The notes beneath the pieces are model-generated. The model was not told where the DNA came from. It ran no database searches and saw only the letters and a program-made list of their open reading frames with translations. Positions 24,906 through 44,669 of a stretch of 64,000 nt of DNA are shown piece by piece. This DNA comes from Elusimicrobiota bacterium (GTDB lineage Bacteria > Elusimicrobiota > Elusimicrobia > UBA1565). The position numbers and the translations under genes were made by a program. The number at the start of each line of letters is the position of its first letter. The first letter of the stretch is position 1. The stretch spans positions 1,171 through 65,170 of the forward strand of contig JACRDU010000155.1 of NCBI GenBank assembly GCA_016218495.1. The letters are read 5' to 3'.

Positions 24906-26036
24906 TCAGCGGGCGGCGAGGAGGGCCGTCTGATGGGATTCGAGCGCGGCCACCATCTCGTCGGTGCCGCCGACGCGGCCCACGCCGCGGCCGAGGAAGG
25001 TGTAGCGTACGCCGTTGGAGACGCCGCCCGAGACGCCGCTGGGGTTGATGCCCAGCTGCCTGGCCAGCGCCATGGAGCCTTCGCCGAAACGGTGGGCCGG
25101 CCCCTTGTCGCCGACGACGGCCAGCACGGAACGGCCGCCGTATTCGACGACGACGAGGTCGCCGAGCTTGGCCATGTTGCTCTTGAGCGGCACGACGACA
25201 TAGGGGACCCGGGTCGGGTCCAGCGAGCGTCCGTTGGCGTAGCGCATCGAGGTGCCTGATTGGCGGTAGGGGTCGCGGCGCGCCATGCGCGCCAGCTCCG
25301 GGTCCGCGTCGGAGAGGGCGCCGTCGGTGTCGATGGTCATCCCGGCGGTGCGGGTGACGACGCTCCCGCCCTGGTAGGCTCGCGCGGCGGCTCCGAGCAG
25401 GTTCGCGGAGCCGGAGGCGGCGGGCAGCGGCGGTTCGGTGGCGGGACGGGTGAAGGAAGGAGGCATGGAGGCTCGGGGACGAGGGTCGGCGCGAGGTGTG
25501 GGGACGGCGCCCGACGCCAGCCCGGCCGCCGACGGGGCCTCGGCACCGGGGTCGCGGTCCTTAGAGGAGTCGAAAAAGCGGCCCTGGAGCCCCGCGTCCG
25601 AAGGGGCTTTGCGGACAGCGTCGGGGACCGCCTCGACGGCCTTCTTGCCTTCCTTCGCCAGGCGGCTCTCCCCTTCCTTCTCAAGGGCGACCCTGTCGCC
25701 GAACTTCTTGAAAATCTTCTCGAGGCGGCGCCGGCAGTCCGCGACGCCCTTGGAGCCCTTCCCCCTCTTCCATGTGATGGCGGCGGACCCGTCCTCCTTC
25801 TCGTCCACCTCCGCCCGGCCCTGGAGGAGGCTGTCCGCGCGGGCCGCGTCCGAGGACTCCCCGCGCTCCTCGCGCACGGCCCTCTCCTCGGCCGAGAGCG
25901 GGGCGAGCTCGAGGTCCACGGTCGGGCTGATGCAGGCCCTCGCTATGGCCTGCGCGTCGAAACCCTGCGCCGCGGCGGCCGAAGCGGCGACGCTCAGGAT
26001 GAGTGCTACCGCGGGAAGGAGGTTGGTGACGCTCAT
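24906..26036 (-). CDS. Secreted protein with C-terminal GH75 chitosanase-like domain
   Basis: Signal peptide; C-terminal MTIDTDGA...TS...LDPTRVPYVVVP...LGDLVVV...AVVGDKGP...GEGSMALARQLG resembles GH75. Confidence 0.72.
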   Translation of the reverse strand: MSVTNLLPAVALILSVAASAAAAQGFDAQAIARACISPTVDLELAPLSAEERAVREERGESSDAARADSLLQGRAEVDEKEDGSAAITWKRGKGSKGVADCRRRLEKIFKKFGDRVALEKEGESRLAKEGKKAVEAVPDAVRKAPSDAGLQGRFFDSSKDRDPGAEAPSAAGLASGAVPTPRADPRPRASMPPSFTRPATEPPLPAASGSANLLGAAARAYQGGSVVTRTAGMTIDTDGALSDADPELARMARRDPYRQSGTSMRYANGRSLDPTRVPYVVVPLKSNMAKLGDLVVVEYGGRSVLAVVGDKGPAHRFGEGSMALARQLGINPSGVSGGVSNGVRYTFLGRGVGRVGGTDEMVAALESHQTALLAAR

Positions 26037-26144: not shown

Positions 26145-27902
26145 ATGAAGCGCTTCGCCTGGGCCCTGCTCCTGGTCAGCCTGGCCTCCGGCGCCGGCCG
26201 CTGCGAAGAAGCCAAGAAGCCGCCGCAGAACGAGCCCGGGAAGGCTTTCAACACCCGCCTCGAACCCAAGCTGACCAAGGACGAGCTGGCCTATATCATG
26301 TCGGAGGCCTCGGGAGGGGTCTACCGCCTCTCCGACGACGGCGGAAGCATCGCGAACTTCACCCCGGATTCCGAGTACGGCCCGGTGCTGAAGTTCGAGG
26401 ACGTCGCCACGCTCATCCAGGCCCACGCGGAAAAGGCCGCGGCCCTGGCCCGCGAGCGCCTGGCCGAAGCGAAGAGGACGGGACGCCCCCCGGTCTTTTC
26501 GGAGGCCGAGAAACGCCTGGCCCAGGACGTCCGGCGCAACCGCCACATGTTCCTCTCCGCCGAGGAGATGGCCGTCCTCGACGAGGCCTTCGGCTATCGC
26601 TACGGCAGGATCCCGGCCGCCGCCCCTTCCGCCGATTTCGACCGCGCCCCCGGAGCCCCCGGCGCTACCCTGCCCCCGGCGGCCGTGCGGGCGGCCCCCG
26701 GCAGGGCCGAGCGGGCCTCCGACCCGGCCCCGTCCGACCCCGAGGCCCGGAAGCTCTACGAGAAAGTCGTGGAGAACGTCTCCTTCTCAGGAACCCCCGA
26801 AGAACAGGCCGCGCTGAAGGCCATGCTGGGCAAGGTGCTCGAGACCGATTCCGGGCGCCGGTTCGCCGCGGATTTCCTCAACGGGAGCAACCCCGGCGAG
26901 GCTCTCATCGAATTCGAGGACATCCCCAAGTCCAAGGTCATCGACTGGAACGGCAAGAAGATCTTCACCGGCTCGGGCGGACACGCCCACACCTCCGACA
27001 CGCCCATCCGCATCCACCTCAACCGGAACTACCTGGCCATCGACGACGGCACCCGCGACGGGGCCTCCACCCTCGCCCACGAATTCCTCGGACACTCGCG
27101 CCAGGCTCTCAAGGCCCGCCGCGCCGGCGTGGACGGCGCCCTCCACCTCTGGGACCAGGACGAACCCAACGCCGGTGCCGTCGGCTGGACCGCCGGCATG
27201 GAGATGGGCCTGCCCGCCACCGAAGGCTGGATGTGGACCTGGATCGGCGACCCGGCCGGCTACCCCGCCGCCCTCAAGACCAACCAGGCGTATTACGCCG
27301 GGACCTTCAGCCTCGACGAGATGCGCCGCCGCCGCACGGACGGGACTTCGGCCGTCCCCGGCATCCTCGAGACCCGCCTCCAGAACGCCTGGAAGGAGCT
27401 CCAGCAGCAAGACGAGAACGAGCGCTCCTGGAAGCGCTGGGAGCGCGCCTACTCCTTCTTCTCCTCGCAGCCCGAGTACAAGGGCAACCCCGAACGGCTC
27501 GAGGGAATCCGCCGCCGCATCGACGGCCAACTGACCGGCTATATTCCGTCCCGGCGGGGCAACCTCGAGGGCATCGTGAGCTACCTGGGCGGGCAGGCGA
27601 CGCTGGACGCCCTGCGCGGCGGAAAGGATCCGGACACCCGCGGCGGGCTCATCGCCCATTACTCCTCCGCCCAAGGCCAGAAGACCCTGGAGGCCACCGC
27701 CACTGCGGCGGATTCCCCCCTATTCAGGACCATCGAGGCGGAGAATACCTGGATGCACGGCCGCCTCACCAAGCTCACCGCGGGCCGCGACCCTTCCTCC
27801 GAGGCCCCCAAGCCCCCCGCCGAATGGGTCACCTGGGAGGAATTCGCGCAGATGGTCCGGAAGCAGAAGGCCAAGGACCCGAAGTTCATGGACGGTCCGT
27901 GA
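26145..27902 (+). CDS. Secreted putative zinc metalloprotease-like protein
   Basis: Signal peptide; TLAHEFLGH followed by downstream DEPNA (zincin-like HExxxH...E arrangement). Confidence 0.6.
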   Translation: MKRFAWALLLVSLASGAGRCEEAKKPPQNEPGKAFNTRLEPKLTKDELAYIMSEASGGVYRLSDDGGSIANFTPDSEYGPVLKFEDVATLIQAHAEKAAALARERLAEAKRTGRPPVFSEAEKRLAQDVRRNRHMFLSAEEMAVLDEAFGYRYGRIPAAAPSADFDRAPGAPGATLPPAAVRAAPGRAERASDPAPSDPEARKLYEKVVENVSFSGTPEEQAALKAMLGKVLETDSGRRFAADFLNGSNPGEALIEFEDIPKSKVIDWNGKKIFTGSGGHAHTSDTPIRIHLNRNYLAIDDGTRDGASTLAHEFLGHSRQALKARRAGVDGALHLWDQDEPNAGAVGWTAGMEMGLPATEGWMWTWIGDPAGYPAALKTNQAYYAGTFSLDEMRRRRTDGTSAVPGILETRLQNAWKELQQQDENERSWKRWERAYSFFSSQPEYKGNPERLEGIRRRIDGQLTGYIPSRRGNLEGIVSYLGGQATLDALRGGKDPDTRGGLIAHYSSAQGQKTLEATATAADSPLFRTIEAENTWMHGRLTKLTAGRDPSSEAPKPPAEWVTWEEFAQMVRKQKAKDPKFMDGP

Positions 27903-28438: not shown

Positions 28439-28500
28439 GGTGTCAGACATTCGGAAATTACGAAAGCGCGAGCTTTCGAAATTTCCGAATGTCTGACACC
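28439..28500. repeat. 62-bp near-perfect inverted repeat (REP/REPIN- or MITE-like hairpin)
   Basis: GGTGTCAGACATTCGGAAATTACGAAAGC-GCGA-GCTTTCGAAATTTCCGAATGTCTGACACC: 29-bp arms, one mismatch, GNRA loop. Confidence 0.85.
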
Positions 28501-28589: not shown

Positions 28590-31280
28590 GTGATACTAAG
28601 GAAGGGCGTTGCGGCCCTGCTGGCCTTGCTGCTGGCGGCGCCGCCGGCCTCTGCCCAGCGCATCGCCGCCCCCATCCTCGCCCCCGTCTTGCCGGGCGCC
28701 TCCATAGTCCTTCCGGCGCCGGTGCTGACCACTCCATTGGGCGCGGCTGCGACCCTGCCGACGCTGTCCGCCCCGTCCCTGTCCGCACCCCGAGGGGTCG
28801 TCGGACCGACGGCCGTCGCCGCTCCCGCCGCCGTGGCCGCCCCGGCGCTAGCGCGGGCCGCAGCCCTGCCCGCGCGGGCCGGGCTACAGGCGCTGGGCGA
28901 CGGCCTGGCCCGCGCCCAGGCCTCCGGTCGCTCCGCGGCGCCCGTCCTGGCTCAGGTCTTCGACGCCTCGGCCCCGCGCTCGGGCTCCCCGGCCTCGGCC
29001 GTCGTCGCCGCCTCCATCGGCGGCCGCACCCTGTCCGGCCTCCCGCGCTCGTTGGCCGCGCTCAAGGAGCTGCGCCTGGGCTCCTACAACGTCCTCAACC
29101 TCTTCGAAAAGGTCGGCAAGCACGTGCCGGACCCCGACCATCCCGGGCAAATGAAGCAGGTCTCCGGCCGCACGGCAAAGGAGGAATGGCAGCTGCGCGA
29201 ACAGGCCCGCGCCATCCTGGAGAGCGGACTCGACGTCGTCGCCCTGCAGGAGGTCGAGAACATCGCGGCGCTCGACGACTTCAACGCGCGCTACCTGGGC
29301 GGGGCCTACAAGACCCTGCTCAGCGAGGGCAACGACCCGCGCGGCATCGACGTGGCCTTCCTGGTTAAGCGCGACTTGCCGCTGACGTTGGAGCAGCGCA
29401 GCCACAAGGACGAGGAGTGGGAGGACCCCACCCAGGGCGGCGCGCGCGCCAAGCTCTTCTCGCGCGACCTGACGGCGCTGGTCGTCCGGGCCGAGGGCTC
29501 GGCGCAGCCGCTCTTCATCCTGCTTGGCACGCACATGAAGTCCAAGCGCGACCGCCCCGGCGACCCGGAGTCGGCCGTCCAGCGCCGCGCCCAGGCCCGC
29601 CGCACCGCCGAGGTCGTGCAGCGCTACCGGGCCGAGTTCGGCGCCGACGCCCGCCTGATGCTGGCCGGGGACTTCAACGGCGACCTCAACGCCGAGGACA
29701 CCTTCGCCCCGCTCTGGGAGGCCGGGCTCACCAACAGCCTGGACCTGGGCGAGCGCCCGGTGCCGCTCGAAGAGCGCGTCACCCACACCTACCACCCTAA
29801 GGATGGGCCGCGCCACGCCGCCCAGATGGACGGCATTTTGGTCTCGGACAGCCTGAAGGGCCTGGTCGCCGGCGCTGAGGTCTACCGCTACAAGGACGAG
29901 GGCGGGACGCCCAAGCCCATTCCCCAGACCTACGATGAGCGCAGCCGCAACCCTTCCGACCATTTCCCGCTGGTGATGACGCTGCGGGTCGCCCCGCTGC
30001 TCAAGGCCGCGCCGGCCCCGCCCGCTCCGGCCGTCCCGGCCCCGGCCGGCGAGCGCCGCCTGGCCGCGCTGGGCCTGGCATGGAGCTTCCTCGCCATCGC
30101 GTCGATGTACATCGTCCTGCCGGTGCGCAGCGCCTTCCTGCTCACCCAGTTCGGGCCCTCCGTCATGCCCTGGGTCTTCATGGCCAGCGCCGCCTTCACC
30201 GGCGCCGCGGCCTGGGCCTACGCGCGCTTCGCCGGCCTGCCGCGCGCCAAGCTCATCGGCGGCACCTTGGCCGTGCTGGCCGCCAGCCTGACCGGCTGGT
30301 GGGCCCTGGCCCCGCTGGCGATGGCCTCGGGCCCGCTGTCCTTCGCCTTCTCGATGTGGGCCGATGCCTTCTCCATCATGTCGGTGACCCTGTTCTGGAC
30401 CTACGCGAACGACCGCTTCAAAGGCGAGGCCGCGAAGCGCTGGTTCGGCCCTTTCGCCGCGGCCGGAGCGCTGGGCGGGATGGCCGGTTCGGCCGCCACC
30501 AAGGCGCTCGTGACCACCCTCGGCACGACGCCGCTGCTCCTCATCGGCGCGGCGGTCTTCGCCGCCATCGGCGGCGTCTTCGCCCTGATGGAGCGCCAGA
30601 CGCTGCCGGAGGCCTCCGAGCCGGCCCCCGCCCTCCAGGCGCCGGCCAAGCCGGACTCCAGCCCGTGGGCCGTGGCCAAGGCCGTGCTGGCCTCGCCGTT
30701 CCTGCTCGCGCTGACCGCCGTGGTCTTCTTCGAGCGCCTGGTCCCGGACTTCTCGTACTACCTCTTCTCCGTCAGCGCCCAGGCCGCCTATCCGACCCGT
30801 GAGGCGATGGCGGCCTTCCTGGCCTCCTTCGGCTTCTGGCAGAGCCTGGCCTCCCTCGTCACCAGCGCGGCCCTGACCGGCTGGGTTCTCAAGAAGCTGG
30901 GCGTAGGCAAGACCCTGCTCGGCGCGCCGCTGGCCAACCTGCTGGGCTTCGTCGGCTTCGCCCTGTCGCCGACCTTGGGCGCTGCGGTGGCTGCCAACGG
31001 CGTGGAGGGCTGGCAGCGATACGGCTGGTTCAAGGCCGCCAAGGAGACCACTTACTCGGCGGCCGACAAGGGCCTGCTCTACCAGGTGAAGGCCTACGTC
31101 GAGATGTTCGTCTACCGCTTCGCGCGCGGCGTGGCCGGCCTCATCCTGCTGCTGCTGACCGGCAGCTCGTTTATGGGCTGGAGCCCCTCCGCCGTAGCCT
31201 GGGCGGCCGTCCCGCTGGGTCTGGCCTGGGTCTACGCCGCCTGGAAACTCGGCGCCGAGTACAAGAAGCGCGCCGGTTAG
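28590..31280 (+). CDS. Fusion: signal peptide/Ala-Pro leader + EEP endonuclease/exonuclease/phosphatase + Npt/TLC-like nucleotide translocase (12-TM MFS)
   Basis: EEP motifs SYNVLNLF, ALQEVEN, NDPRGIDVAFL, HMKSK, LAGDFN, MDGILV, PSDHFP. MFS part YIVLPVRSAFL, FWTYANDRF...AKRWFG, RYGWFKAAKE, YQVKAYVEMFVYRFARG. Confidence 0.85.
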   Translation: MILRKGVAALLALLLAAPPASAQRIAAPILAPVLPGASIVLPAPVLTTPLGAAATLPTLSAPSLSAPRGVVGPTAVAAPAAVAAPALARAAALPARAGLQALGDGLARAQASGRSAAPVLAQVFDASAPRSGSPASAVVAASIGGRTLSGLPRSLAALKELRLGSYNVLNLFEKVGKHVPDPDHPGQMKQVSGRTAKEEWQLREQARAILESGLDVVALQEVENIAALDDFNARYLGGAYKTLLSEGNDPRGIDVAFLVKRDLPLTLEQRSHKDEEWEDPTQGGARAKLFSRDLTALVVRAEGSAQPLFILLGTHMKSKRDRPGDPESAVQRRAQARRTAEVVQRYRAEFGADARLMLAGDFNGDLNAEDTFAPLWEAGLTNSLDLGERPVPLEERVTHTYHPKDGPRHAAQMDGILVSDSLKGLVAGAEVYRYKDEGGTPKPIPQTYDERSRNPSDHFPLVMTLRVAPLLKAAPAPPAPAVPAPAGERRLAALGLAWSFLAIASMYIVLPVRSAFLLTQFGPSVMPWVFMASAAFTGAAAWAYARFAGLPRAKLIGGTLAVLAASLTGWWALAPLAMASGPLSFAFSMWADAFSIMSVTLFWTYANDRFKGEAAKRWFGPFAAAGALGGMAGSAATKALVTTLGTTPLLLIGAAVFAAIGGVFALMERQTLPEASEPAPALQAPAKPDSSPWAVAKAVLASPFLLALTAVVFFERLVPDFSYYLFSVSAQAAYPTREAMAAFLASFGFWQSLASLVTSAALTGWVLKKLGVGKTLLGAPLANLLGFVGFALSPTLGAAVAANGVEGWQRYGWFKAAKETTYSAADKGLLYQVKAYVEMFVYRFARGVAGLILLLLTGSSFMGWSPSAVAWAAVPLGLAWVYAAWKLGAEYKKRAG

Positions 31281-32311
31281 AGCCGTTCCCCGGTGTCGGC
31301 GTCGAAGCGGTGCAGCTTCTCGGCGGGGAGCCTGAAGAAGACCTCTTCGCGCGAGCCGGGGAAGGTGCCCGGCCAGCAGGCGCGGAATTTGAAGCCCGAG
31401 GACTCGATGCTCAACACGGTCTGCGCTCCGGTGGGTTCGGCCAGGAGGACCTTGCCGACCAAGAAGCCGTCCTTCAGCTCCAGGGAAAGCTGGACATCCT
31501 CCGGCCTCAGGCCTCCCAGCACCGTCCCGGAGGCTGCGCCGTCCTCGACTGCCCTGGCCTTGTGCGCCTCTTCGAGCGGGAAGACGTTCATCGGCGGCGC
31601 CCCCAGGAAGGTGGCGACGAAGGTATTGGCCGGGTGGTGGTAGATGTCGGCGGGCGTGCCCACCTGCTGGATGCGGCCCTTGTCGAGCACGACGACGCGG
31701 TCGGAGAGGGTCATGGCTTCGATCTGGTCGTGGGTAACATAGACGGCCGTCCCTTTGAGGCGTTTGAAGAGGAGCTTGAGCTCGCCGCGCGTGCGCTCGC
31801 GCAGCACGGCGTCCAGGTTCGAGAGCGGCTCGTCGAGCAAGGTGGCCTTCGGATGGCGCACCAGGGCCCGGCCCAGCGCCACGCGCTGGCGCTGTCCGCC
31901 GGAGAGGGCCGCCGGCTTGCGCTCGAGCAGCTCCTCCAAAGACAGCATCCGGGCCGCCTCCTGGATGCGCTCCTCGATGAGGGCGGGTTCGGCTCCCCGC
32001 AGCTTGAGGCCCATCGCTATGTTCTCGCGCACCAGCAGGTGCGGATACAGCGCGTAGTTCTGGAAGACGAAGGCGATGTCGCGGTCCTTGGGCGGGGTGT
32101 CGGTGACGTCGGCCCCGCCGATGCTGATGGCGCCGGAATCGGCCAGCTCCAGCCCGGCGATGATGCGCAGCAAGGTCGTCTTGCCGCAGCCTGAGGGCCC
32201 CAGCAGGCAGACGAACTCGCCGTCCTTGACGGTGAAGGAGATGTCGTCCAAGACCGGGCGCTTGCCCCCCTTGAACTGCTTGCGGATGTTCTTGACTGCC
32301 ACTTCGGCCAT
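31277..32311 (-). CDS. Sugar ABC transporter ATP-binding protein (MalK-like)
   Basis: GPSGCGKT, FQNYALYPH, LSGGQRQR, LDEPLSNLDA, YVTHDQ. Confidence 0.95.
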   Translation of the reverse strand: MAEVAVKNIRKQFKGGKRPVLDDISFTVKDGEFVCLLGPSGCGKTTLLRIIAGLELADSGAISIGGADVTDTPPKDRDIAFVFQNYALYPHLLVRENIAMGLKLRGAEPALIEERIQEAARMLSLEELLERKPAALSGGQRQRVALGRALVRHPKATLLDEPLSNLDAVLRERTRGELKLLFKRLKGTAVYVTHDQIEAMTLSDRVVVLDKGRIQQVGTPADIYHHPANTFVATFLGAPPMNVFPLEEAHKARAVEDGAASGTVLGGLRPEDVQLSLELKDGFLVGKVLLAEPTGAQTVLSIESSGFKFRACWPGTFPGSREEVFFRLPAEKLHRFDADTGERL

Positions 32312-32315
32312 GGGC

Positions 32316-33146
32316 TTATCCTTTGACGGCTCCCGCCGTAAGACCTTCCACGATGCGCTTCTGGAACGCCAGCACCAATGCGACGACGGGCAGAGTGGTC
32401 AGCACCACCGCCGCCGAAATCTGGTCCCAGGGGACCTCGTACATGGTAACGCCCGAGAGCATGGCGATGCCCACCGGCACCGTACGCGCGGCGTCCTGCG
32501 ACATGAATATGAGGGCCAGCAGGAACTCGTTCCACGAGAAGATGAATACCAGGATGGCCGTCGTCGCCACCGCTGGGGCGGCCAGCGGGAAGACCACCTT
32601 CCAAAGGGTCTGCCAGCGCGAGAGCCCGTCGATGGCCGCGGCCTCCTCCAGGTCGCGCGGTATGGCCTTGAAGAAGGTCATCAGCACCCATATCGAGAAG
32701 GGGAGGTTCAAGGCGGTATAGGGCAAGATGAGCCCCAGCGGGTTGTTGAGCAGGTGCAGCGCCTGCACCAGCTTGTAGAGCGGCACCACCAGGATGGTGG
32801 GCGGGAAGAGGGCCACGAACAAGATGGAGCGCACCGCCCACTCCCCGCCCGGCAGCGGCAGGCGCGAGAACGCGTAGGCCGCCAGGGTACCGACCACGGA
32901 GCACAGCGCCGTCGTGGCCAGCGCGACGACGACGCTGTTGAGGATGTAGGTGCCGAACGGGCGCGTCGAGAAGATTTTCACGTAGCTGGCCAAGGTCGGG
33001 TGGCTGGGCCAGTAGGTCGGCGGGACCTTCACCACCTCCGCCGTGGGTTTCAGGCTGGTGACGACCTGCCACAGGAACGGCCCCAGGCTCCACAGGACCA
33101 CGGCCGCCACGGCGAGGACGAAGAGGGCGTTGCCGAGCCGCTTCAT
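32316..33146 (-). CDS. Carbohydrate ABC transporter permease (MalG-like)
   Basis: EAA loop IPRDLEEAAAIDG, FSWNEF; six TM segments. Confidence 0.94.
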   Translation of the reverse strand: MKRLGNALFVLAVAAVVLWSLGPFLWQVVTSLKPTAEVVKVPPTYWPSHPTLASYVKIFSTRPFGTYILNSVVVALATTALCSVVGTLAAYAFSRLPLPGGEWAVRSILFVALFPPTILVVPLYKLVQALHLLNNPLGLILPYTALNLPFSIWVLMTFFKAIPRDLEEAAAIDGLSRWQTLWKVVFPLAAPAVATTAILVFIFSWNEFLLALIFMSQDAARTVPVGIAMLSGVTMYEVPWDQISAAVVLTTLPVVALVLAFQKRIVEGLTAGAVKG

Positions 33147-34000
33147 GCCTGCTCCTTCTGGCGCGTGAAGTAGAGGATGCCGGCCGACATGACGAGCAGG
33201 CAGGCCGCCATCACCAACGTCAGGGTGCAGGCGTAGCCGAGTTCCAGGTAGCGGAAGACGTTGTCATAGACGTAGAGGGCGATCATGCGCGTCGAGCCGC
33301 CCGGTCCGCCGCCGGTCAGCACCCAGACCAGGTCGAAGACGCCGAAGGACTGGATGGCGCGAAAGACCATCGCCAGCGCCAGCGTGGGCTTGAGCAGGGG
33401 CAGGGTTATCAGGAAGAAACGCCGAACCGGGCCGGCGCCGTCTATGCCGGCGGCTTCATAGAGCTCGTCGGGGATGTTGGCCAACCCGCTCATGAAGAGC
33501 AGGGTCATGAACGGCGTGGTCTTCCAGACGTCGGCCAGCACGCAGGCCGCCATCGCGGAGCCTGGCGAGGCCAGCCAGGCCACGCGCGGGGAGGAGACCA
33601 GCCCGAATTTGAAGAGGAGATCGCCCAGGATGCCGTATTCCGGGTTGTAGATCCACTGCCAGGCCATCGCCATGATGGCGGTGGGCAGCGCCCAGGGCAC
33701 CAGCACGGCCGCGCGCACCAGGCCGCGGCCCTTGAACGGGCGGGTCAGCAGCAAAGCGATGGCCAGCCCCAGCACGGTCTCGATGGAGACGGCATAGGCC
33801 GTGAACCTGACCGTATTCCACAAGGAGGCGAACATCCGCCCGTCGGCGGATAGTCTGTGGAACCCCGACGCGTAGCGGAATGCGGCGACGACGGGGAGCA
33901 GGTTGACCAGCGCCATCAGGAGCAGCGCCGGCACGGCGAAGCTCCAGTTGACGGCGGCTTCCCTAGGGCCGAAGCCGGCGTGAGCCCGGTCGCGGGACAT
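33143..34000 (-). CDS. Carbohydrate ABC transporter permease (MalF-like)
   Basis: DVWKTTPF, IPDELYEAAGIDGA, LTGGGPG; ATG 34000 overlaps the binding-protein stop. Confidence 0.93.
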   Translation of the reverse strand: MSRDRAHAGFGPREAAVNWSFAVPALLLMALVNLLPVVAAFRYASGFHRLSADGRMFASLWNTVRFTAYAVSIETVLGLAIALLLTRPFKGRGLVRAAVLVPWALPTAIMAMAWQWIYNPEYGILGDLLFKFGLVSSPRVAWLASPGSAMAACVLADVWKTTPFMTLLFMSGLANIPDELYEAAGIDGAGPVRRFFLITLPLLKPTLALAMVFRAIQSFGVFDLVWVLTGGGPGGSTRMIALYVYDNVFRYLELGYACTLTLVMAACLLVMSAGILYFTRQKEQA

Positions 34001-35247
34001 CAGCGCGCCATTGCCGGCCGGATCTCGTCGGCGGCGGCCTTCAGGGCGGCCTCGGGCGTCTTCTGGCCCGACAGAGCGGCGCTCAGATGGACCTGCAGGA
34101 TGTCCGAGACCCGCGCCCATTGCGGATGCACGGGCCGCGGCTTGGCGGTCTCGAGCACTTCGCGCAGTTCCTTATAATGGGGGCTCTTGGAGACGATGTC
34201 GGGGTCGTCGAATAGCGCCTTGCGGGTGGGGATGATGCCGCTCTTCATGTAGGCGACCTTCTGGGCCTCGCGGCTGGAGGCGAACTCGATGAAGGTCCAG
34301 GCCGCCTCGGGGTTCTTGGAGAAGCTGGAGATGCCGTAGCCCCAGCCCCCCAGGGTGGCCGCAGGGGAGCGGCCGGAGCCGTGGACCATGGGGCGGATTC
34401 CGACCTTCCCCTTTACGGGAGAGCCGTCCTGCTGGGCCAGGTTCCAGGCATAGGGCCAGTTGCGCATGAAGACGGCGCGCCCCTCCTGGAACATGTGGCG
34501 CGCCTCCTCCTCTTGGAAGGTCAGCACGCCGTCGGGGGAGATCTTGTCCTTGCGCACGGCGTCGACCAGCCAGGTCAGGGCCTCCACGGCGGCGGGGTCG
34601 TCCACATGGACGCCGCCGTGCTCGTCGATGAGGGTCCCGCCGTTGCCCCAGACCAGTTCCAGGAAGTCGCAGACCAGGCCCTCGTACTGCTTGCCCTGGA
34701 AGACGAAGCCCCACACCTCGGGCGGGTTCTGCAGCTTCTTCGCCGCCGCCGCCAGCTCCGCCCAGGTGTTCGGAGGCGCGATGCCGGCCGCCTCGAGCAG
34801 GTCCTTGCGGTAGTAGAGCAGGCCGCCGTCGGACTGGACCGGCACGCGGTAGGTCTTCCCCTCATAGCGCGAACCGGCGATGTCGCCCGGCAGGAACTGC
34901 GCCTGCATCTCCGGCGTGAACTTGTCGTCGAGCGGCCGCAGCCAGCCCTGGTGGGCGAACTTGGGCATCCAGACCACGTCCATATAGACGATGTCGTAGG
35001 TGCTCTCCCCCCCCATGAACGAGGTGGAGTACATGTCCTCGCGCGTGCCGGTCCCCGCCGGGCCTTCCACCATCTCGATGAGGAGCTCCGGATGGAGCTG
35101 GTGGAACTCGGCGATGACCTCCTTGGCGCCCCCACCCACGTCGGGGCCGGCGAGGAAGCGGACCACGGTCTTTCCGGAGGAGGGGGCGTCGGACTTGGCG
35201 CAGGCGGCGAGCAGGAAAGGCAGGAGAACGGCGGGGCGCCACCTCAT
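34000..35247 (-). CDS. Sugar ABC transporter substrate-binding lipoprotein (trehalose/maltose type)
   Basis: Lipobox LAAC; MDVVW, LYYRKDLL, QYEGL, FMRNWPY, ATLGGW, PRP. Confidence 0.92.
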   Translation of the reverse strand: MRWRPAVLLPFLLAACAKSDAPSSGKTVVRFLAGPDVGGGAKEVIAEFHQLHPELLIEMVEGPAGTGTREDMYSTSFMGGESTYDIVYMDVVWMPKFAHQGWLRPLDDKFTPEMQAQFLPGDIAGSRYEGKTYRVPVQSDGGLLYYRKDLLEAAGIAPPNTWAELAAAAKKLQNPPEVWGFVFQGKQYEGLVCDFLELVWGNGGTLIDEHGGVHVDDPAAVEALTWLVDAVRKDKISPDGVLTFQEEEARHMFQEGRAVFMRNWPYAWNLAQQDGSPVKGKVGIRPMVHGSGRSPAATLGGWGYGISSFSKNPEAAWTFIEFASSREAQKVAYMKSGIIPTRKALFDDPDIVSKSPHYKELREVLETAKPRPVHPQWARVSDILQVHLSAALSGQKTPEAALKAAADEIRPAMAR

Positions 35248-35266: not shown

Positions 35267-38200
35267 TCAGCGGCCGAAGAGGCCGTAGTCCGTCATGACG
35301 CGCAGCACCTCGGCCACGCTCCAGGCCTGAGAGCGGGTGCCGCCGCGGTTCTGCGCGCGCGCCGCGCGGGCCATCGCCGGGCCGAGGCCGGCCCGGTCCT
35401 CGAGGGAGAACTCCCTGAACAGCGCCTCGGAGGACCCGCCGTCGAAGACTTCGGGCAGAGAGCCCTCCGTGGAGGCGGCCAGGAACTCGGCCAGCGGGGT
35501 CAGCACGCCGCGCAGCTCGGCGCTGATTCGCTCGGAGGACCAGCCCTGGGCGCGGCGCACCTTGACCAGGGCATCGAGGTAGGGGCCCATCAGCCAGGGC
35601 CAGACCGTGCCCTGGTGGTAGGCCTGGTCCTTCTCCAGCGGGGGCTTCGCGGTATCGTAACGCCCCTGGTAGCGCGGGTCGCGGTAGGAGAGGGTGCGCA
35701 TCCCGTAGGGCGTCAGCAGGTCGCGCGTGGCGGCCAGCACGACGGCCGCCTGCCGCTCGGGGCTCAGGAGGTCGAGGCCGTGGCTGACGGCCACGAGCAT
35801 GTTCGGGCGCACCGCTTCGCCGTGCGGGTCGCCCTCGACCACGTCGCGCAGCGCTCCGCCCGTACCGCCCCAGGCCCGCCGGTTCTCCTCGTTGGCGAAC
35901 CAGAACTTCTTGTTGAAGGACTGTTTGACCCGCTCGGCCCGGGCGTCGGCCTCGGAGGCGGCCGCGGCGTCCCCGGCCTCGCGCTCCAGCTCGGCGAGGT
36001 AGCGCAGATTCGCGTACCAGAGGGCGTTGATCTCCACCGCCTTGCCGTGGCGCGGGGTCACCGGGCGGTCGCGGCCTTCGGGGTCGGCGTCCATCCAGGT
36101 GGACTGGGCGGGGCTGACGATGAGCCCATCGGAGTCCATGTAGATGCGGTTATAGCGGCCGTAGCGCTGGTAGCCGGTGCCCTCGGCGTAGGCGCGCATC
36201 ACCTTGCGCAGCACCGGCAGCATCTCGGCGGCGAAGGCCGGGTCGCCGGCCTTCTTGACCGCCTGGACGAACCACATCGAGCCGTCCACGGTGTTGTATT
36301 CCGCCGCCGCCCCGCCTCCCGGCAGGCGGTTCGGGATGAGGCCGTCAGCCTCGTGGCGCGCGAAGCCGCGGATGTTCTCGCGCGCCTCGCCGCGGCGCCC
36401 GGTGGAGAGCAGGAGGCCGGGCAGGGAGATGAAGGTGTCGCGGCCCCACTCCTCGAGGAACCAGTCCAGGCTGGCCGCCCAGATCTGGACCCCGCCGCCG
36501 GCGTGCTTCACGAACGAATCCCCCGCCTTGAGGAAGGCGCCCTTCAGCGCGGCCCCCGCGCTCCAGACCTTGCCCGCCAGCACGGCCATCCAGGCCCCCA
36601 GTTGGGCGCGCACGTCCCAGCGCGCACGGCTGCCGTAGTCCGGGTCGGAGGGCAGCGGGATGCGCCAGCGCCAATGCGAGGTGCCGCCCGCCATCTCCTT
36701 GACCGGGAACGGGTCGCCCCATTCGTCGCCCAAGGTGTAGCCGGTGAAGCGCGCGTTGCGCCCCGAACCGGGCTTGCGGCTCTCGGCCAGGAAGCGCCCG
36801 ATGAAGCCGTCGGAGCGCGGGTCGTCGTGGCTGGAGACCTTCTTCCAGTCCCCGTACACCGTCACGAAACCGAAGCGCTCGGCCGCCTCGGCCTTCCCCT
36901 CGAAGGCCTCGGCCAGCGGGAAGGCGCCGCGCTCTGAGAACACCTGCGCCAGGGCCTTCACATAGTCGTCGCCCGGCTCGTCGCCCGACACCATCTGCCC
37001 GTTGCCGAAGTCGTAGGCGAAGTGCAGCGCGTCCACGCGCGCCCCGTCGAAGCCCAGGTCCAGCCAGTGGCGATAGGGCGCCAGCATCGCCGCGTAGCCC
37101 TCGGATTTCGCGCGCCCCCAGTTCCACAGGCCCAGGTCCTTCCAGTCCTCGTTTATCCACTGGTTCTTGATGCCGGGGTTTCGGGTGCGCAGGTCGGTGA
37201 AGACCTCGGGGCGCTTCCAGGCATCCACCGAGTCCTTGCCGCGGAACATCGGTATGTCGAAGAGCACGCGGCCGCCGACGTCGTGGACGGTCGCCAGGGC
37301 CTCCTGGAGCTGGCCATAGGCCAGCCACTGCGCGAACTCGTGCGTCTCCACCGTCTCGCTGAAATCGGCCCGCCCCCGTGCCCCGGCCAGGTCAGCCGGC
37401 GTCCACTGCAGCACCGGCTTGCCCACGGCCTTCGACAGCGCCATGAACTCGGCGTACTCGCCCAGCCAAGCCGCGCTCTCCGCCTTGAAGTCCTCGAAGG
37501 CCCGGCCGCGCTGGGAAGTCCGGTCGAAGGCGCGGTAGGCCGCGCGGGCGACCTCCGCCTCCCGCGCGCGCAAGGCCTCGTAGTCCACGGCCTGCTTCTG
37601 GGACAGGGTCTTGGCCTCGAGCTTGGCGGCCAGCGCCGGGTCGGCCTTCACCTCCGGCACGACCGCCCAGTCCAGGTGGTCCTCGTTGACGGCGAAGAGG
37701 CTGACGGGGGCGTAGGGGCTCTCCCCGCGTACGGCGAAGTGCGGCAGCAGATGGACGACCTTAGCGCCCTGCTTGGCCAGCACGTCGCGGTAGTAGGCGG
37801 CGAAATCGGTGAACTTGCCCACCCCGGGGTCGCCTTTCTCGCGCCGCAGCGAGTAGAGCGGCACGGTGACGCCGGCGTGGGCGGCGGCCGGGTCGCGCCA
37901 CCAGGCGGAGCGGGCCAGGCCCGTGCGCGACAGCCCGCCGGAGCGGCCGTCCACGACGCCGGAGCGCCCGGAGACCTGGCGCCCGCCGTCGAACAGGGCT
38001 CTGAGCGCCGGGGCCGGCGCTTTGGCTACGGCCGGCGCGGCCTCCTTGAGCGAGGCCAGCGGCGTCTCGGCCCGCCCCTGCGCCGGCGCCGACGGGCCGG
38101 CGACGGCCTTGGGGGCGGCGACGGCTGAGGCGGCCGCGGCCCGCGCCGAAGCGGCGGCGGGCACGGCGACGGCAGGGAGGGCGGAAACCGCGACGGTCGG

Positions 38201-38404
38201 GGCGGCCAGCGCCGCGCCGGGCGAAAGGGTCAGCGTCGGCTTGGGCCGGGAGACCGGCGCCAAGCCTCCGACGGAGACAGGCGCGACGGGGACGGTGACG
38301 GGGGCGGAGACGACCTGCGCGAGGACGGGAGAGACGGGCTGGAGGAGCAGGCACAGCGACAGGAGGGCCGCGCCGATTCGGCCCAACAGGATTTCTCGCC
38401 TCAC
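35267..38404 (-). CDS. Fusion: signal peptide/Ala-Pro leader + GH77 4-alpha-glucanotransferase-like + amylo-alpha-1,6-glucosidase (glycogen debranching C-terminal domain)
   Basis: GH77-like GVTVPLYSLR, GVGKF, SPYAPVSLFA, FDIP, RVDALH; GDE-like WGRDTFISLPGL, GLIPN, YNTVDGSMWF, TWMDA, TPRHGKAVEINALWY, RPN, YHQGTVWPWL, QAWSVAE. Confidence 0.88.
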   Translation of the reverse strand: MRREILLGRIGAALLSLCLLLQPVSPVLAQVVSAPVTVPVAPVSVGGLAPVSRPKPTLTLSPGAALAAPTVAVSALPAVAVPAAASARAAAASAVAAPKAVAGPSAPAQGRAETPLASLKEAAPAVAKAPAPALRALFDGGRQVSGRSGVVDGRSGGLSRTGLARSAWWRDPAAAHAGVTVPLYSLRREKGDPGVGKFTDFAAYYRDVLAKQGAKVVHLLPHFAVRGESPYAPVSLFAVNEDHLDWAVVPEVKADPALAAKLEAKTLSQKQAVDYEALRAREAEVARAAYRAFDRTSQRGRAFEDFKAESAAWLGEYAEFMALSKAVGKPVLQWTPADLAGARGRADFSETVETHEFAQWLAYGQLQEALATVHDVGGRVLFDIPMFRGKDSVDAWKRPEVFTDLRTRNPGIKNQWINEDWKDLGLWNWGRAKSEGYAAMLAPYRHWLDLGFDGARVDALHFAYDFGNGQMVSGDEPGDDYVKALAQVFSERGAFPLAEAFEGKAEAAERFGFVTVYGDWKKVSSHDDPRSDGFIGRFLAESRKPGSGRNARFTGYTLGDEWGDPFPVKEMAGGTSHWRWRIPLPSDPDYGSRARWDVRAQLGAWMAVLAGKVWSAGAALKGAFLKAGDSFVKHAGGGVQIWAASLDWFLEEWGRDTFISLPGLLLSTGRRGEARENIRGFARHEADGLIPNRLPGGGAAAEYNTVDGSMWFVQAVKKAGDPAFAAEMLPVLRKVMRAYAEGTGYQRYGRYNRIYMDSDGLIVSPAQSTWMDADPEGRDRPVTPRHGKAVEINALWYANLRYLAELEREAGDAAAASEADARAERVKQSFNKKFWFANEENRRAWGGTGGALRDVVEGDPHGEAVRPNMLVAVSHGLDLLSPERQAAVVLAATRDLLTPYGMRTLSYRDPRYQGRYDTAKPPLEKDQAYHQGTVWPWLMGPYLDALVKVRRAQGWSSERISAELRGVLTPLAEFLAASTEGSLPEVFDGGSSEALFREFSLEDRAGLGPAMARAARAQNRGGTRSQAWSVAEVLRVMTDYGLFGR

Positions 38405-42290: not shown

Positions 42291-44669
42291 CTATAGCTCC
42301 AGGAGGACATGGTCGTAGATCCGCGGGATCTTCGTCCCCGCGCCCTCCAGCGTGTAAAAGCTCCACTCTTCCTTCTTGGCCGCCACCGCGCGCAGCTCCC
42401 CGAGGTAGCCGTCCCAGGTCGACACGAAGGCGCGCGTGCCGGAAAAATCCGCCACCGAGGCGAAATAGGAGGCCGAGAAGGTGAACTCCACCATGTTCTT
42501 GTCCTTGTCGGCGCGGGCGGCGATGTCCCCGACCAACGGCTTGCCGTAGGATTCCGGCCCCGAATCGGCCGCCCCGAAGGAGCGCATGTCCCAGCCGTAG
42601 AGCAGGAAGCCGGCGTTGAACTCGAAGTCGGAGCGGGCGTAGCCGAGCTTCGGGAAGAAGCGCTTGCCCGGGACGCCCGGGAAATCGAAGTAGACCGAGA
42701 AATAGACGTGGTCGAAGCCATGCGGCGGATTCCATTCGTCCGTCACATCGGTCATCTTGAAGCGCAGCTTCAGGTCCCGTCCCGAGGTCAGCGCGTCCAC
42801 GCGTTCCATCGAGAGCTGGCCGCGATAGCTGGGGTCAGCCGGAGGGCGCACGGTGCCGTCGAGGCCGCCCTTCTGGGCCTGCGGGACCTTGGAACGCACC
42901 AGCAGCTTGTAAGGGTTCTTCACCGTCAGCGTCACCGGCGCCGACAGCGCCAGCCCGGCCTTGCTCTTGGCCAGCAGGGTCAGGTCGTGGCGGCCGTTGC
43001 CCAGGCGCGTCGTGTCGAGCTCCACGCAGCCCGCGGAAGGGTCGGACAGCGGCACGCGCCGCCCATAGTCGCCGTTGTCGAGGAGGACGAGCTCGCAGGC
43101 CCGGTCCTCGAGCCTGTAGTCCAGCGGGACGGTGCCCTTGACCAGGCGCCTGGCCGGGGCGACCAAGGCCAGGCCGTGCGCGTCCGCCGGGACAAAGGCG
43201 CCCTCCAGCACGAGGAATTCGCCCGGCTCGAGCAGGAAGACCCCGGGGACGTCCTTGCGCCCGTGGGAGGACAGCGCCACGGACAGGCCCTCCCCCCCCA
43301 GGTCGCAGGCCACGGGGTTGGGCGCGGTGTTGAAGACGGACACCAGGCGGACGTCCTTGTGCGTGCTCGACCAGGCCAGGAGGCCGGGGCCGTGGCTGGT
43401 GCGCTCGACGGCCAGCTTGCCGCGGGTCAGCGCGGGGTGGGCCTTGCGGAAAACGACCAGGGAGCGGATGAAGACGGCCAGCGGGCTCTCCAGGTCGAAG
43501 GCTTCGTCCCGGAACATGTCCTCGCGGGCGCGGGTCAGGGCGGCCTCGGTGCCGTAGTAGACGCAGGGCAGGCCGGGCAGGGTGAAGAGGGCGGCCAGCG
43601 ACTGCTTTACCGTGGGCAGGTCGGCCCGAGCGCACATGCGCTCGATGTCGTGGTTGTCGAGGAAGTTGACCCACAGCGGCCGGTTCGCGCGCGGGGCCTT
43701 GAGGACCTTGCGCAGGCGTTCGGTGGGCGCCTTGCGGAAGAAGACCTGGGTCAGCGCCTCGTTGAGCGGCAGGTCCACCGCCCCGTCGAGGCGCGGCCGG
43801 CCCGGCCCCTTAATGTAGTCGTTGATGGCCTTCGTGTCGTATGACCAGACCTCGCCGAAGACGAAGAAGTCGCGCTTGCCCTTCTTGGCGGCGTGCGGCT
43901 TCACTCCGTCGGCGTCGTACAGGAAGCGCTCGTAGAACTCCTCGGGGGTGTAGTAGACCGTGTCGACCCGGAATCCGTCGATGCCGGCCTCGTCCATCCA
44001 GAACTTGTAGACCTCCTTGAAGCGCTGCACGGCCAGGGGGCTCTTCAAATTGATGTCGTCGAGGTCCCCCATCGACCAGGTCAGGGTCTGCTCGCGCGAC
44101 TTGAAGTCGGAGATGTTCGGCGTGAAGTTGTAGACGGCCGCGCGCTTGTGCTCGGGGTTGTTGGGGTCGTTGAGCGAGAACACCGGGTCCTTGGGCGCCA
44201 TCAGCGCCCCGTCGGCCAGCTTCCAGTTGAGCTCCGGGCGGGCCGGGTCGAAGCCCTGGCCCTCCACGGTGAAGAAGTTGCCCGTGTGGTTGACCACGAT
44301 GTCCTGGATGACCTTGAGCCCCAGAGCGTGGGCCCGCGCGACGAACGTCTTGTAGTCCGCCAGCGTGCCGAAGTGGGGGTCCACAGCCGTGAAGTCGTAG
44401 GCCCAGTAGCCGTGGAAGCCCCGGGTCTTGATGTAGGGATTGACCCACTGGTTGTGCACCGGCGGGGTGATCCACACCGCGTCGTAGCCCATCCCCTTTA
44501 TGAAAGGGAGGCGTTCGGTCAGGCCCTTGAGGTCCCCGCCGTGGAAGGCGTCGTCATCGTCCGGGTCGTACTCGCCCTTGCCGAAGTCGTCGTTGGAGCG
44601 GTCGCCGTTGGCGAAGCGGTCGATGAGGACCAGATAGACGACCTTGTCGCGCCAAGCGTCGGGCTTCAC
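42291..44669 (-). CDS. GH13 alpha-amylase family (no signal peptide) with C-terminal DOMON/CBM-like domain
   Basis: DRFANGD, GGDLKG, HGYW, DIVVNH, DGFRVDT, FGEVW, FLDNHD, YYGTE; C-terminal WNPPHGFDHV...STWD. Confidence 0.92.
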   Translation of the reverse strand: MKPDAWRDKVVYLVLIDRFANGDRSNDDFGKGEYDPDDDDAFHGGDLKGLTERLPFIKGMGYDAVWITPPVHNQWVNPYIKTRGFHGYWAYDFTAVDPHFGTLADYKTFVARAHALGLKVIQDIVVNHTGNFFTVEGQGFDPARPELNWKLADGALMAPKDPVFSLNDPNNPEHKRAAVYNFTPNISDFKSREQTLTWSMGDLDDINLKSPLAVQRFKEVYKFWMDEAGIDGFRVDTVYYTPEEFYERFLYDADGVKPHAAKKGKRDFFVFGEVWSYDTKAINDYIKGPGRPRLDGAVDLPLNEALTQVFFRKAPTERLRKVLKAPRANRPLWVNFLDNHDIERMCARADLPTVKQSLAALFTLPGLPCVYYGTEAALTRAREDMFRDEAFDLESPLAVFIRSLVVFRKAHPALTRGKLAVERTSHGPGLLAWSSTHKDVRLVSVFNTAPNPVACDLGGEGLSVALSSHGRKDVPGVFLLEPGEFLVLEGAFVPADAHGLALVAPARRLVKGTVPLDYRLEDRACELVLLDNGDYGRRVPLSDPSAGCVELDTTRLGNGRHDLTLLAKSKAGLALSAPVTLTVKNPYKLLVRSKVPQAQKGGLDGTVRPPADPSYRGQLSMERVDALTSGRDLKLRFKMTDVTDEWNPPHGFDHVYFSVYFDFPGVPGKRFFPKLGYARSDFEFNAGFLLYGWDMRSFGAADSGPESYGKPLVGDIAARADKDKNMVEFTFSASYFASVADFSGTRAFVSTWDGYLGELRAVAAKKEEWSFYTLEGAGTKIPRIYDHVLLEL

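Follow-up and report, generated by a model that had tools for sequence, protein, structure and literature searches.

A single gene in a 64,000-nt stretch of DNA from an Elusimicrobiota bacterium (the window, which lies on contig C131 of the genome here called G000) joins an endonuclease/exonuclease/phosphatase (EEP) domain to a predicted membrane carrier of the NTT/TLC type, behind a signal-peptide-like leader that conflicts with the topology of the carrier. The open reading frame (ORF) at 28590-31280 on the forward strand begins with a GTG start codon and encodes 896 amino acids. We give about an even chance to the reading that its product is an import-and-process salvage unit, with the EEP domain at the cytoplasmic end of the carrier and a leader that does not export what follows it. 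The EEP domain itself is probably cytoplasmic, and would be placed there by the first helix of the carrier rather than by the signal. The parts of the protein are, in order:

28590..28655, +, signal-peptide-like segment, residues 1-22, read as MILRKG / GVAALLALLLAA / PPASA and then Q23, with a helix at residues 2-16 in the AlphaFold2 (AF2) model
28656..29066, +, leader, residues 23-159, from a leader profile match and an alignment with 10 other leaders of the genome
29067..30008, +, EEP domain, residues 160-473, from Pfam PF03372 and PF19580 and the AF2 fold
30009..30056, +, Pro-rich linker, residues 474-489 (AAPAPPAPAVPAPAGE), from sequence, hydropathy and AF2
30057..31253, +, predicted 12-helix MFS carrier of the NTT/TLC type, residues 490-888, from AF2, Pfam TLC, Foldseek and a clade profile
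31254..31280, +, basic C-terminal tail GAEYKKRAG and stop codon, from sequence

The AF2 model of the 896-residue protein, built from a 20-row alignment, has a mean predicted local distance difference test (pLDDT) score of 78.7, and the leader is largely disordered in it (pLDDT <50 at residues 17-94 and 124-149). The leader runs from a QR-IAAPILAPV motif through about 45 uncharged Ala, Pro, Leu and Ser residues and Ala-rich helices to a VFDAS motif. The Pro-rich linker comprises 16 residues, after which R489-R... and helix 1 follow, and its shortness and polarity would each keep it from spanning a membrane.

The fusion of the EEP domain with the carrier is a genuine single gene. Of 31 protein matches, seven metagenomic ones have the same architecture at 89-100% query cover and 63-66% identity, and a second genome of the same genus (G001) also encodes the fusion (L030). 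The domain junction is spanned by one contig of an independent study (X3 record 20; 29973-30123) and by two X2 contigs (29762-30053 and 30029-30255), all of which differ by substitutions only and have no gaps. An artefact of assembly or a frameshift is thus ruled out by the full-length homologs, the copy in G001 and the gap-free contigs, and there is neither a stop codon nor a frameshift between the domains at the junction. A wrongly chosen start codon was likewise rejected, as the homologs align from residue 1, and a non-coding leader was rejected on the in-frame third-position G+C content (GC3), which is 0.87-0.97 through the leader of a SecA paralog described below. The initial annotation, made from the DNA letters without database searches, had described an uninterrupted 896-residue ORF consisting of a signal, a leader, an EEP domain with intact motifs, a Pro linker, an Npt/TLC-like carrier with about 12 hydrophobic segments and a KKRAG tail, and had proposed looking for the same architecture in other genomes; all of these elements are confirmed here, and the architecture is found in the seven metagenomic proteins and in G001. 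Named relatives of the protein come from metagenome-assembled genomes (MAGs) of Elusimicrobia or Elusimicrobiota, near-identical DNA is present in groundwater metagenomes, with no RNA run among the sequencing runs listed as holding it, and G+C content across the window is 64-76%. The fusion is rare in the phylum: in an even sample of 201 genomes the full-length form was found in G000 only, with the EEP or the carrier part alone in six others.

Our analysis of the EEP domain places it within the superfamily by model, fold and motifs. The Pfam model Exo_endo_phos (PF03372) matched residues 205-374 with 31.4 bits (cut-off 24.5) and Exo_endo_phos_3 scored 30.3 bits (cut-off 27). All catalytic motifs (SYNVLNL, LQEVEN, GTHMKS, GDFNG, MDGILV and PSDHF) are present and are kept in the family consensus, supplying the Asn, Glu, His, Asp-x-Asn, Asp and Asp-His positions, and AF2 gives a confident EEP fold, an alpha/beta sandwich, at residues 160-473, for which Foldseek returned TDP2, 3mpr, Nocturnin and CNOT6L. 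Stand-alone relatives in Elusimicrobia mostly consist of leader plus EEP domain (420-490 aa). The nearest leaderless relatives (346-406 aa) share 44-48% identity and include MAGs labelled Proteobacteria or Deltaproteobacteria. One further protein (P0014) combines this EEP domain with a LOG/SLOG domain of the nucleotide-nucleosidase type.

By sequence profiles and the predicted fold the carrier is a member of the NTT/TLC nucleotide-carrier superfamily, within a divergent, uncharacterised clade, since both the clade profile and the best fold matches point to solved NTTs. Pfam TLC (PF03219) matched residues 595-788 with 23.9 bits (cut-off 21), and MFS_1 scored 23.4 bits, under its cut-off of 33.4. 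The AF2 model has 12 MFS-type helices (486-521, 523-546, 552-579, 581-609, 613-644, 646-669, 703-733, 737-761, 778-792, 796-824, 827-857 and 866-895), with both termini on the side rich in Lys and Arg. The best Foldseek matches were AtNTT1 (9j3l; E 2.6e-11, template modelling score 0.74) and CpNTT1 (9j3n), and over all the solved NTTs the scores were 0.69-0.74, normalised to the target, at 16-18% identity. Searched against 177,635 distinct PDB sequences at E<=0.01, the carrier-clade profile (A3) found CpNTT1 (E 1.7e-33), AtNTT1 (2.8e-25) and no others, and the clade and the solved NTTs have in common the motifs FW.(F/Y)AN(D/E), EAKR, (R/K)Y..F..(A/T)KE..Y and K.KA.I(E/D)...RF. The carrier thus groups with nucleotide carriers rather than with MFS families for other solutes, a grouping on which the initial annotation had staked its identification.

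A search with query residues 480-896 against 1.84 billion representatives gave 5,353 carrier relatives at E<=1e-3. Distant ones (27-33% identity) are proteins of 900-1100 aa with the carrier at the N-terminus and, by their Pfam domains, of the NTT-HEAT kind. Close stand-alone relatives have 409-433 residues and no leader, and close fused ones consist of leader plus carrier or of leader, adenylate kinase and carrier (P0034, P0037); one protein (P0033) joins adenylate kinase to the carrier without a signal, and an Elusimicrobiota MAG also encodes an adenylate kinase-carrier fusion (L051). G000 itself has a leaderless and more typical NTT paralog on contig C128, with a TLC score of 86.4 bits. This paralog (C128:2112-3416, +) lies downstream of a leader-bearing protein with a weak Lnb_N match (C128:305-1573, +).

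The conflict between signal and carrier topology, which the initial annotation had pointed out, is real, and counting transmembrane helices does not remove it. An odd number of helices, or an additional one after the EEP domain, would restore an ordinary arrangement; the AF2 model has exactly 12 carrier helices and none between the EEP domain and helix 1. Hydropathy alone had left helix 10 (795-815) doubtful, and an extra or odd helix was rejected because AF2 places a helix at 796-824 with pLDDT >80. Lys plus Arg residues (K+R) in the loops and ends of the carrier number 18 on the side of the termini versus two on the opposite side, and in all 22 family members counted they number 16-25 versus 1-6, with the bias alike in stand-alone (P0035, P0036, P0038) and leader-fused forms. 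Because this bias favours the termini side, helix 1 would begin in the cytoplasm, and because only 16 Pro-rich residues join the EEP domain to helix 1, the domain would lie on the same side.

The same signal and leader are found on about 22 proteins of the genome, many of which can work only in the cytoplasm, and the puzzle thereby shifts from the fusion gene to the leader. As a module the leader consists of a signal, AQ plus a basic residue, APV..P, 30-60 uncharged Ala, Pro, Leu and Ser residues, Ala-rich helices and (L/F)FD(G/A), and the fusion protein carries it clearly (leader profile, built from residues 1-158, E 9.6e-30 and 3.3e-29). A word-index search with this profile gave only seven matches, owing to the low complexity of the leader sequence, and a genome-wise search was used instead. 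It placed the leader 18 times in G000, 12 and 15 times in two genomes of the same genus and 0-4 times in other relatives, with at least one place in 11 of the 21 genomes searched; among the 2,744 GC3-filtered ORFs of G000, 22 match. The leader is a lineage-specific module.

Leader cargo typed by Pfam comprises a SecA paralog, adenylate kinase (ADK), PPK2, glycogen synthase, a GH77+GDE_C protein, a GH13 amylase, a LonB-like AAA+ protease, a class III nucleotidyl cyclase, an RNB exoribonuclease, a double PLD-like domain and four further MFS_1 transporters (on contigs C15, C101, C3 and C104), with no strictly periplasmic family among them, and about 10 cargo regions have no Pfam match. The leader cargo of G001 includes, in addition, a nucleotidyltransferase and a caleosin. 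In G000 the profile misses a further copy each of SecA (C134), ADK (C143), GlgA (C57) and PPK2 (C97). No second translocon was found in G000, which has one SecY and one YidC, and an exported SecA paralog would therefore be partnerless.

Several of these proteins deserve a note on position and length. The leader-bearing SecA paralog (G000:C33:118735-122064, +) and ADK (C33:115649-116902, -) are separated by 2 kb that hold a malic-enzyme-like gene, and the canonical ADK on C143 adjoins the single SecY. Leaders also precede a HAD-like stretch plus MFS transporter (C15:907-4344, -; 1144 aa), the RNB exoribonuclease (C148:2526-6608, +; 1360 aa), the LonB-like protease (C40:11576-15061, -; 1160 aa) and the class III nucleotidyl cyclase (C139:82754-84172, -). 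The caleosin-family protein of G001 is encoded at G001:C45:8887-10260 (L036); caleosins are lipid-droplet proteins in plants.

The early mature region also sets the leader proteins apart from ordinary exported ones. The net charge over positions +1 to +18 is +1 in the fusion protein and averages +1.31 in the leader proteins versus -0.64 in other proteins with Gln at +1, and Asp or Glu occurs within this region in three of 13 leader proteins versus 66 of 78 other Q+1 signals. The fusion protein thus lacks the neutral or acidic start and the outside-working cargo of a typical Sec/SPI export. Andersson and von Heijne in 1991 and Kajava and colleagues in 2000 reportedly found that Sec export in E. 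coli is hindered by a positive early mature region. Glutaminyl cyclase of the PF05096 family was not found in G000, a search that did not extend to M28-type cyclases.

On the reading that we favour, the fusion protein would sit in the inner membrane of the cell's own envelope, its C-terminal 400 residues forming a conventional 12-helix carrier with both ends in the cytoplasm and the EEP domain hanging from helix 1 by the 16-residue Pro linker at the carrier's inner mouth. The leader module would leave the downstream protein unexported and most likely tie its N-terminus to the membrane, either because the Pro-rich stretch recrosses it after cleavage of the signal at A22|Q23, as happens with phage procoat, or because the leader never crosses the membrane at all. 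The carrier would import a nucleotide, a dinucleotide or a very short oligonucleotide. At once the EEP domain on its tether would cut a phosphodiester or a phosphate, trapping the imported compound; in the adenylate kinase sister fusions trapping may be by phosphorylation instead. Established here are a single fused gene, the superfamily and folds of its parts, a carrier of 12 helices with biased charge, and a leader that recurs on cargo of a cytoplasmic type; the side of the EEP domain, the substrate and the direction of transport we infer. With the side of the EEP domain set by helix 1, the leader would have to be compatible with cytoplasmic cargo, a demand that the other leader cargoes make independently. 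A salvage function is suggested because both halves have nucleotide-related fusion partners (adenylate kinase for the carrier, LOG/SLOG for the EEP domain) and because much of the leader cargo is nucleotide-related (RNB, PLD-like, PPK2, ADK and the cyclase).

Several observations weigh against this reading. The N-terminus (MILRKGVAALLALLLAAPPASA|QR) shows, by reading, the n, h and c regions of a Sec/SPI signal, with a short h-region, a Pro in the c-region and an AxA|Q site (it ends ASA|Q). Gln at +1 after AxA occurs in 74 of the 474 heuristic signal-like N-termini of G000, outside the Bacteroidetes, and since the genome's ordinary exported proteins (DegP-like and SLT proteins among them) have it too, real processing on the outer face is suggested. 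The most hydrophobic stretch of the leader, residues 25-43, contains five prolines and is disordered in the AF2 model; the leader has no credible segment to return the chain across the membrane. Among NCBIfam models the ExeM/NucH domain of extracellular nucleases (NF033681) fits the EEP domain best, but at 47 bits versus a cut-off of 300, so that the domain is not a member of that family. The enzyme family does appear to be exported elsewhere, because ordinary short signals stand at the start of 11 of the 12 leaderless EEP relatives judged by eye (a subset of the 120 listed of 323 found), some of which are named 'predicted extracellular nuclease', and a nuclease without specificity would put the cell at risk if it acted in the cytoplasm. 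The TLC score of the carrier is marginal, and what the carrier moves, and in which direction, is a guess.

These points can be turned into a different proposal, namely that the signal works, that the exported EEP domain degrades external or periplasmic DNA and RNA and that the carrier takes up the nucleotides. A nuclease with a nucleotide importer is functionally the tidiest pairing, the AxA|Q signal resembles those of the genome's ordinary exported proteins, the EEP relatives with ordinary signals come from other phyla, and ExeM/NucH is the best NCBIfam model. The proposal would need an unconventional carrier, however, with helix 1 entering from the outside or with a frustrated or inverted topology, and the 12 helices, the absence of an extra one and the linker of 16 residues all speak against this. 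The 18 Lys and Arg residues would face the periplasm against two on the other side, and leaderless stand-alone carriers show the identical bias; the inverted uptake module offered by the initial annotation is contradicted by the same counts. Four other MFS transporters and ATP-dependent enzymes bear the same leader, moreover, and fusions with adenylate kinase would be senseless outside the cell, so that we rate working export as improbable. Of similar standing, and also improbable, if by a shade less, is that the EEP domain lies inside and its pairing with the carrier has nothing to do with nucleotide import: another solute might be exported or exchanged, or the substrate of the enzyme might be a lipid head group, a sugar phosphate or a phosphoprotein, or else foreign nucleic acid that it degrades on entry at the membrane. 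Phosphatases of lipids and of sugars belong to the EEP superfamily (mannosyl-6-phosphatase, 4c1r, is among the Foldseek matches, as is Nocturnin), and the carrier clade is distant from the characterised NTTs, as the low identity of the fold matches indicates. To our knowledge, however, the characterised NTTs all carry nucleotides or NAD. The introduction of Major et al. (PMC5381601) says the same, while the passages of that paper on NTT-HEAT proteins, to which the distant relatives belong, give them no known function. The independent fusions of the carrier with adenylate kinase and of the EEP domain with a LOG-type domain point to nucleotides, and PADLOC gave no match that would make the fusion gene part of a defence system.

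Two further explanations take the signal as genuine and look for a place where the cargo could function. The leader might be a targeting signal to a second nucleotide-containing compartment, for example an energised periplasm, where duplicate SecA, ADK, PPK2, GlgA and LonB-like proteins work and which NTT-type carriers supply with nucleotides or drain of them; this would be a bacterial counterpart to Ignicoccus, whose intermembrane space is energised. Behind the leader one consistently finds an additional copy of a housekeeping enzyme, as with organelle-targeted paralogs, and the signals look genuine. The single SecY and YidC nevertheless stand against it, as do five MFS transporters that bear the leader at the end placed in the cytoplasm by charge bias or motif A, and there is no known route for a 12-helix protein across the inner membrane; we regard this explanation as very improbable. 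Slightly less credit still goes to delivery into the membrane of another cell, in which nucleotides freed by the EEP domain would be exported to the parasite by the carrier, one of the two resolutions that the initial annotation had offered. Formally, such delivery would remove the conflict between a working signal and the carrier topology, and Legionella has a translocated carrier effector, LncP. The genome, however, is 4.15 Mb in size and 95% complete, the gene has neither a linked delivery system nor a conserved neighbourhood, and the same leader stands on SecA, glycogen synthase, the LonB-like protease and similar proteins. NTT-type carriers had been taken in the initial annotation as hallmarks of energy parasites, a claim that fails because, as the main text of Major et al. 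(PMC5381601) has it, they are widespread in free-living bacteria. Nothing was found in favour of insertion into another cell, and of the earlier interpretation as a whole the topology conflict stands while neither of its resolutions finds support.

The surroundings of the fusion gene reveal no conserved operon partners, the locus in G001 sharing only the fusion gene with the window. The gene is convergent with an ABC ATPase gene (31277-32311, -), the two ends overlapping by 4 nt. Two genes upstream of it (26145-27902, +, and 24906-26036, -) encode signal-bearing proteins, one of which (585 aa) has an HExxH motif (LAHEFLGH). The 154-nt spacer directly upstream contains a palindrome (28439-28500) that is AT-richer than the genome and has 29-nt arms, 97% complementary, and a 4-nt loop. 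The genome contains the first 14 nt of the palindrome 27 times, for the most part in inverted pairs, and because of this recurrence the palindrome looks like a member of an intergenic element family of the repetitive extragenic palindromic (REP) kind.

Other leader-bearing genes lie in the window as well. A protein of 1045 aa with GH77 (4-alpha-glucanotransferase) and GDE_C (debranching) domains is encoded at 35267-38404 (-) and its gene heads an operon-like row for an ABC sugar importer (31277-35247, -) made up of a binding protein, two permeases and the ATPase, and a GH13 protein of the alpha-amylase/cyclomaltodextrinase type is encoded at 44666-46681 (-), where the real start is the internal MTRLL... 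and not that of the longest ORF, which reaches 47344. Leader enzymes beside a sugar importer fit as a parallel for enzymes tethered at the inner face that process imported compounds.

What is known of NTT-type carriers concerns mainly the theft of ATP by obligate intracellular organisms, and the many versions in free-living bacteria are without an assigned role. A carrier fused to an EEP domain or to adenylate kinase yields a testable hypothesis for one free-living clade, salvage of nucleotides at the membrane and their processing without delay. Sec-like signals fronting proteins that must stay inside are, besides, a wider oddity of this lineage, and few cases of it are as clear as the fusion gene. 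If these signals act as tethers, this would be a new use of signal peptides, and signal predictors would mislocalise dozens of proteins per genome in the phylum; if they do export, the cell plan would be unlike anything described. Should the very improbable second compartment exist after all, it would mean a nucleotide-containing, energised periplasm with NTT-type carriers handling its traffic.

Compared with the NTT/TLC carriers (PF03219, TC 2.A.12) of solved structure (CpNTT1, 9j3n and 9j3o; AtNTT1, 9j3j, 9j3l and 9j3m), the fusion carrier has the 12-helix MFS fold in common and is divergent in sequence, its TLC score of 23.9 bits comparing with 86.4 bits for the leaderless paralog of the same genome. 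None of the characterised NTTs has an N-terminal signal-like leader or an added EEP or adenylate kinase domain. The architectures given in the main text of Major, Embley and Williams (2017; PMC5381601) are NTT, NTT-HEAT, NTT-HEAT-cNBD and NTT-SAM MTase, as well as 2OG-Fe(II) oxygenase-NTT. As in those fusions, free-living bacteria combine an NTT module with a further domain; unlike there, the partner is N-terminal, enzymatic (EEP or adenylate kinase) and set behind a signal-like leader. Fusions of an NTT with an EEP domain or with adenylate kinase are not mentioned in the main-text passages of that paper, its supplements aside, and in the literature we found no report on NTT, EEP and adenylate kinase fusions, which is a weak negative. 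With the ExeM/NucH-type nucleases (NF033681) and the proteins named 'predicted extracellular nuclease' the EEP domain shares the fold and the catalytic motifs, but here a leader precedes it and the cytoplasm-facing end of a carrier follows. In the Q-rule of Bacteroidetes, as described by Bochtler et al. (2018, PMC5837995), Sec/SPI signals are followed by Gln at +1, and the leader proteins resemble such signals in their n, h and c regions and AxA|Q site, Q+1 being enriched in the ordinary signals of G000 too. Unlike those, they continue with a basic residue, APV..P and 30-60 uncharged, Pro-rich residues, have no acidic mature start and carry cargo of a cytoplasmic type. A likeness in mechanism, and in mechanism only, is offered by the lysophospholipid MFS transporter LplT with the acyltransferase Aas, in which transport is coupled to an attached cytoplasmic enzyme. 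Families and substrates differ and LplT/Aas has no signal-like leader, but in both cases an MFS carrier hands, or in the fusion protein would hand, its substrate to an enzyme at the inner face, which traps it there.

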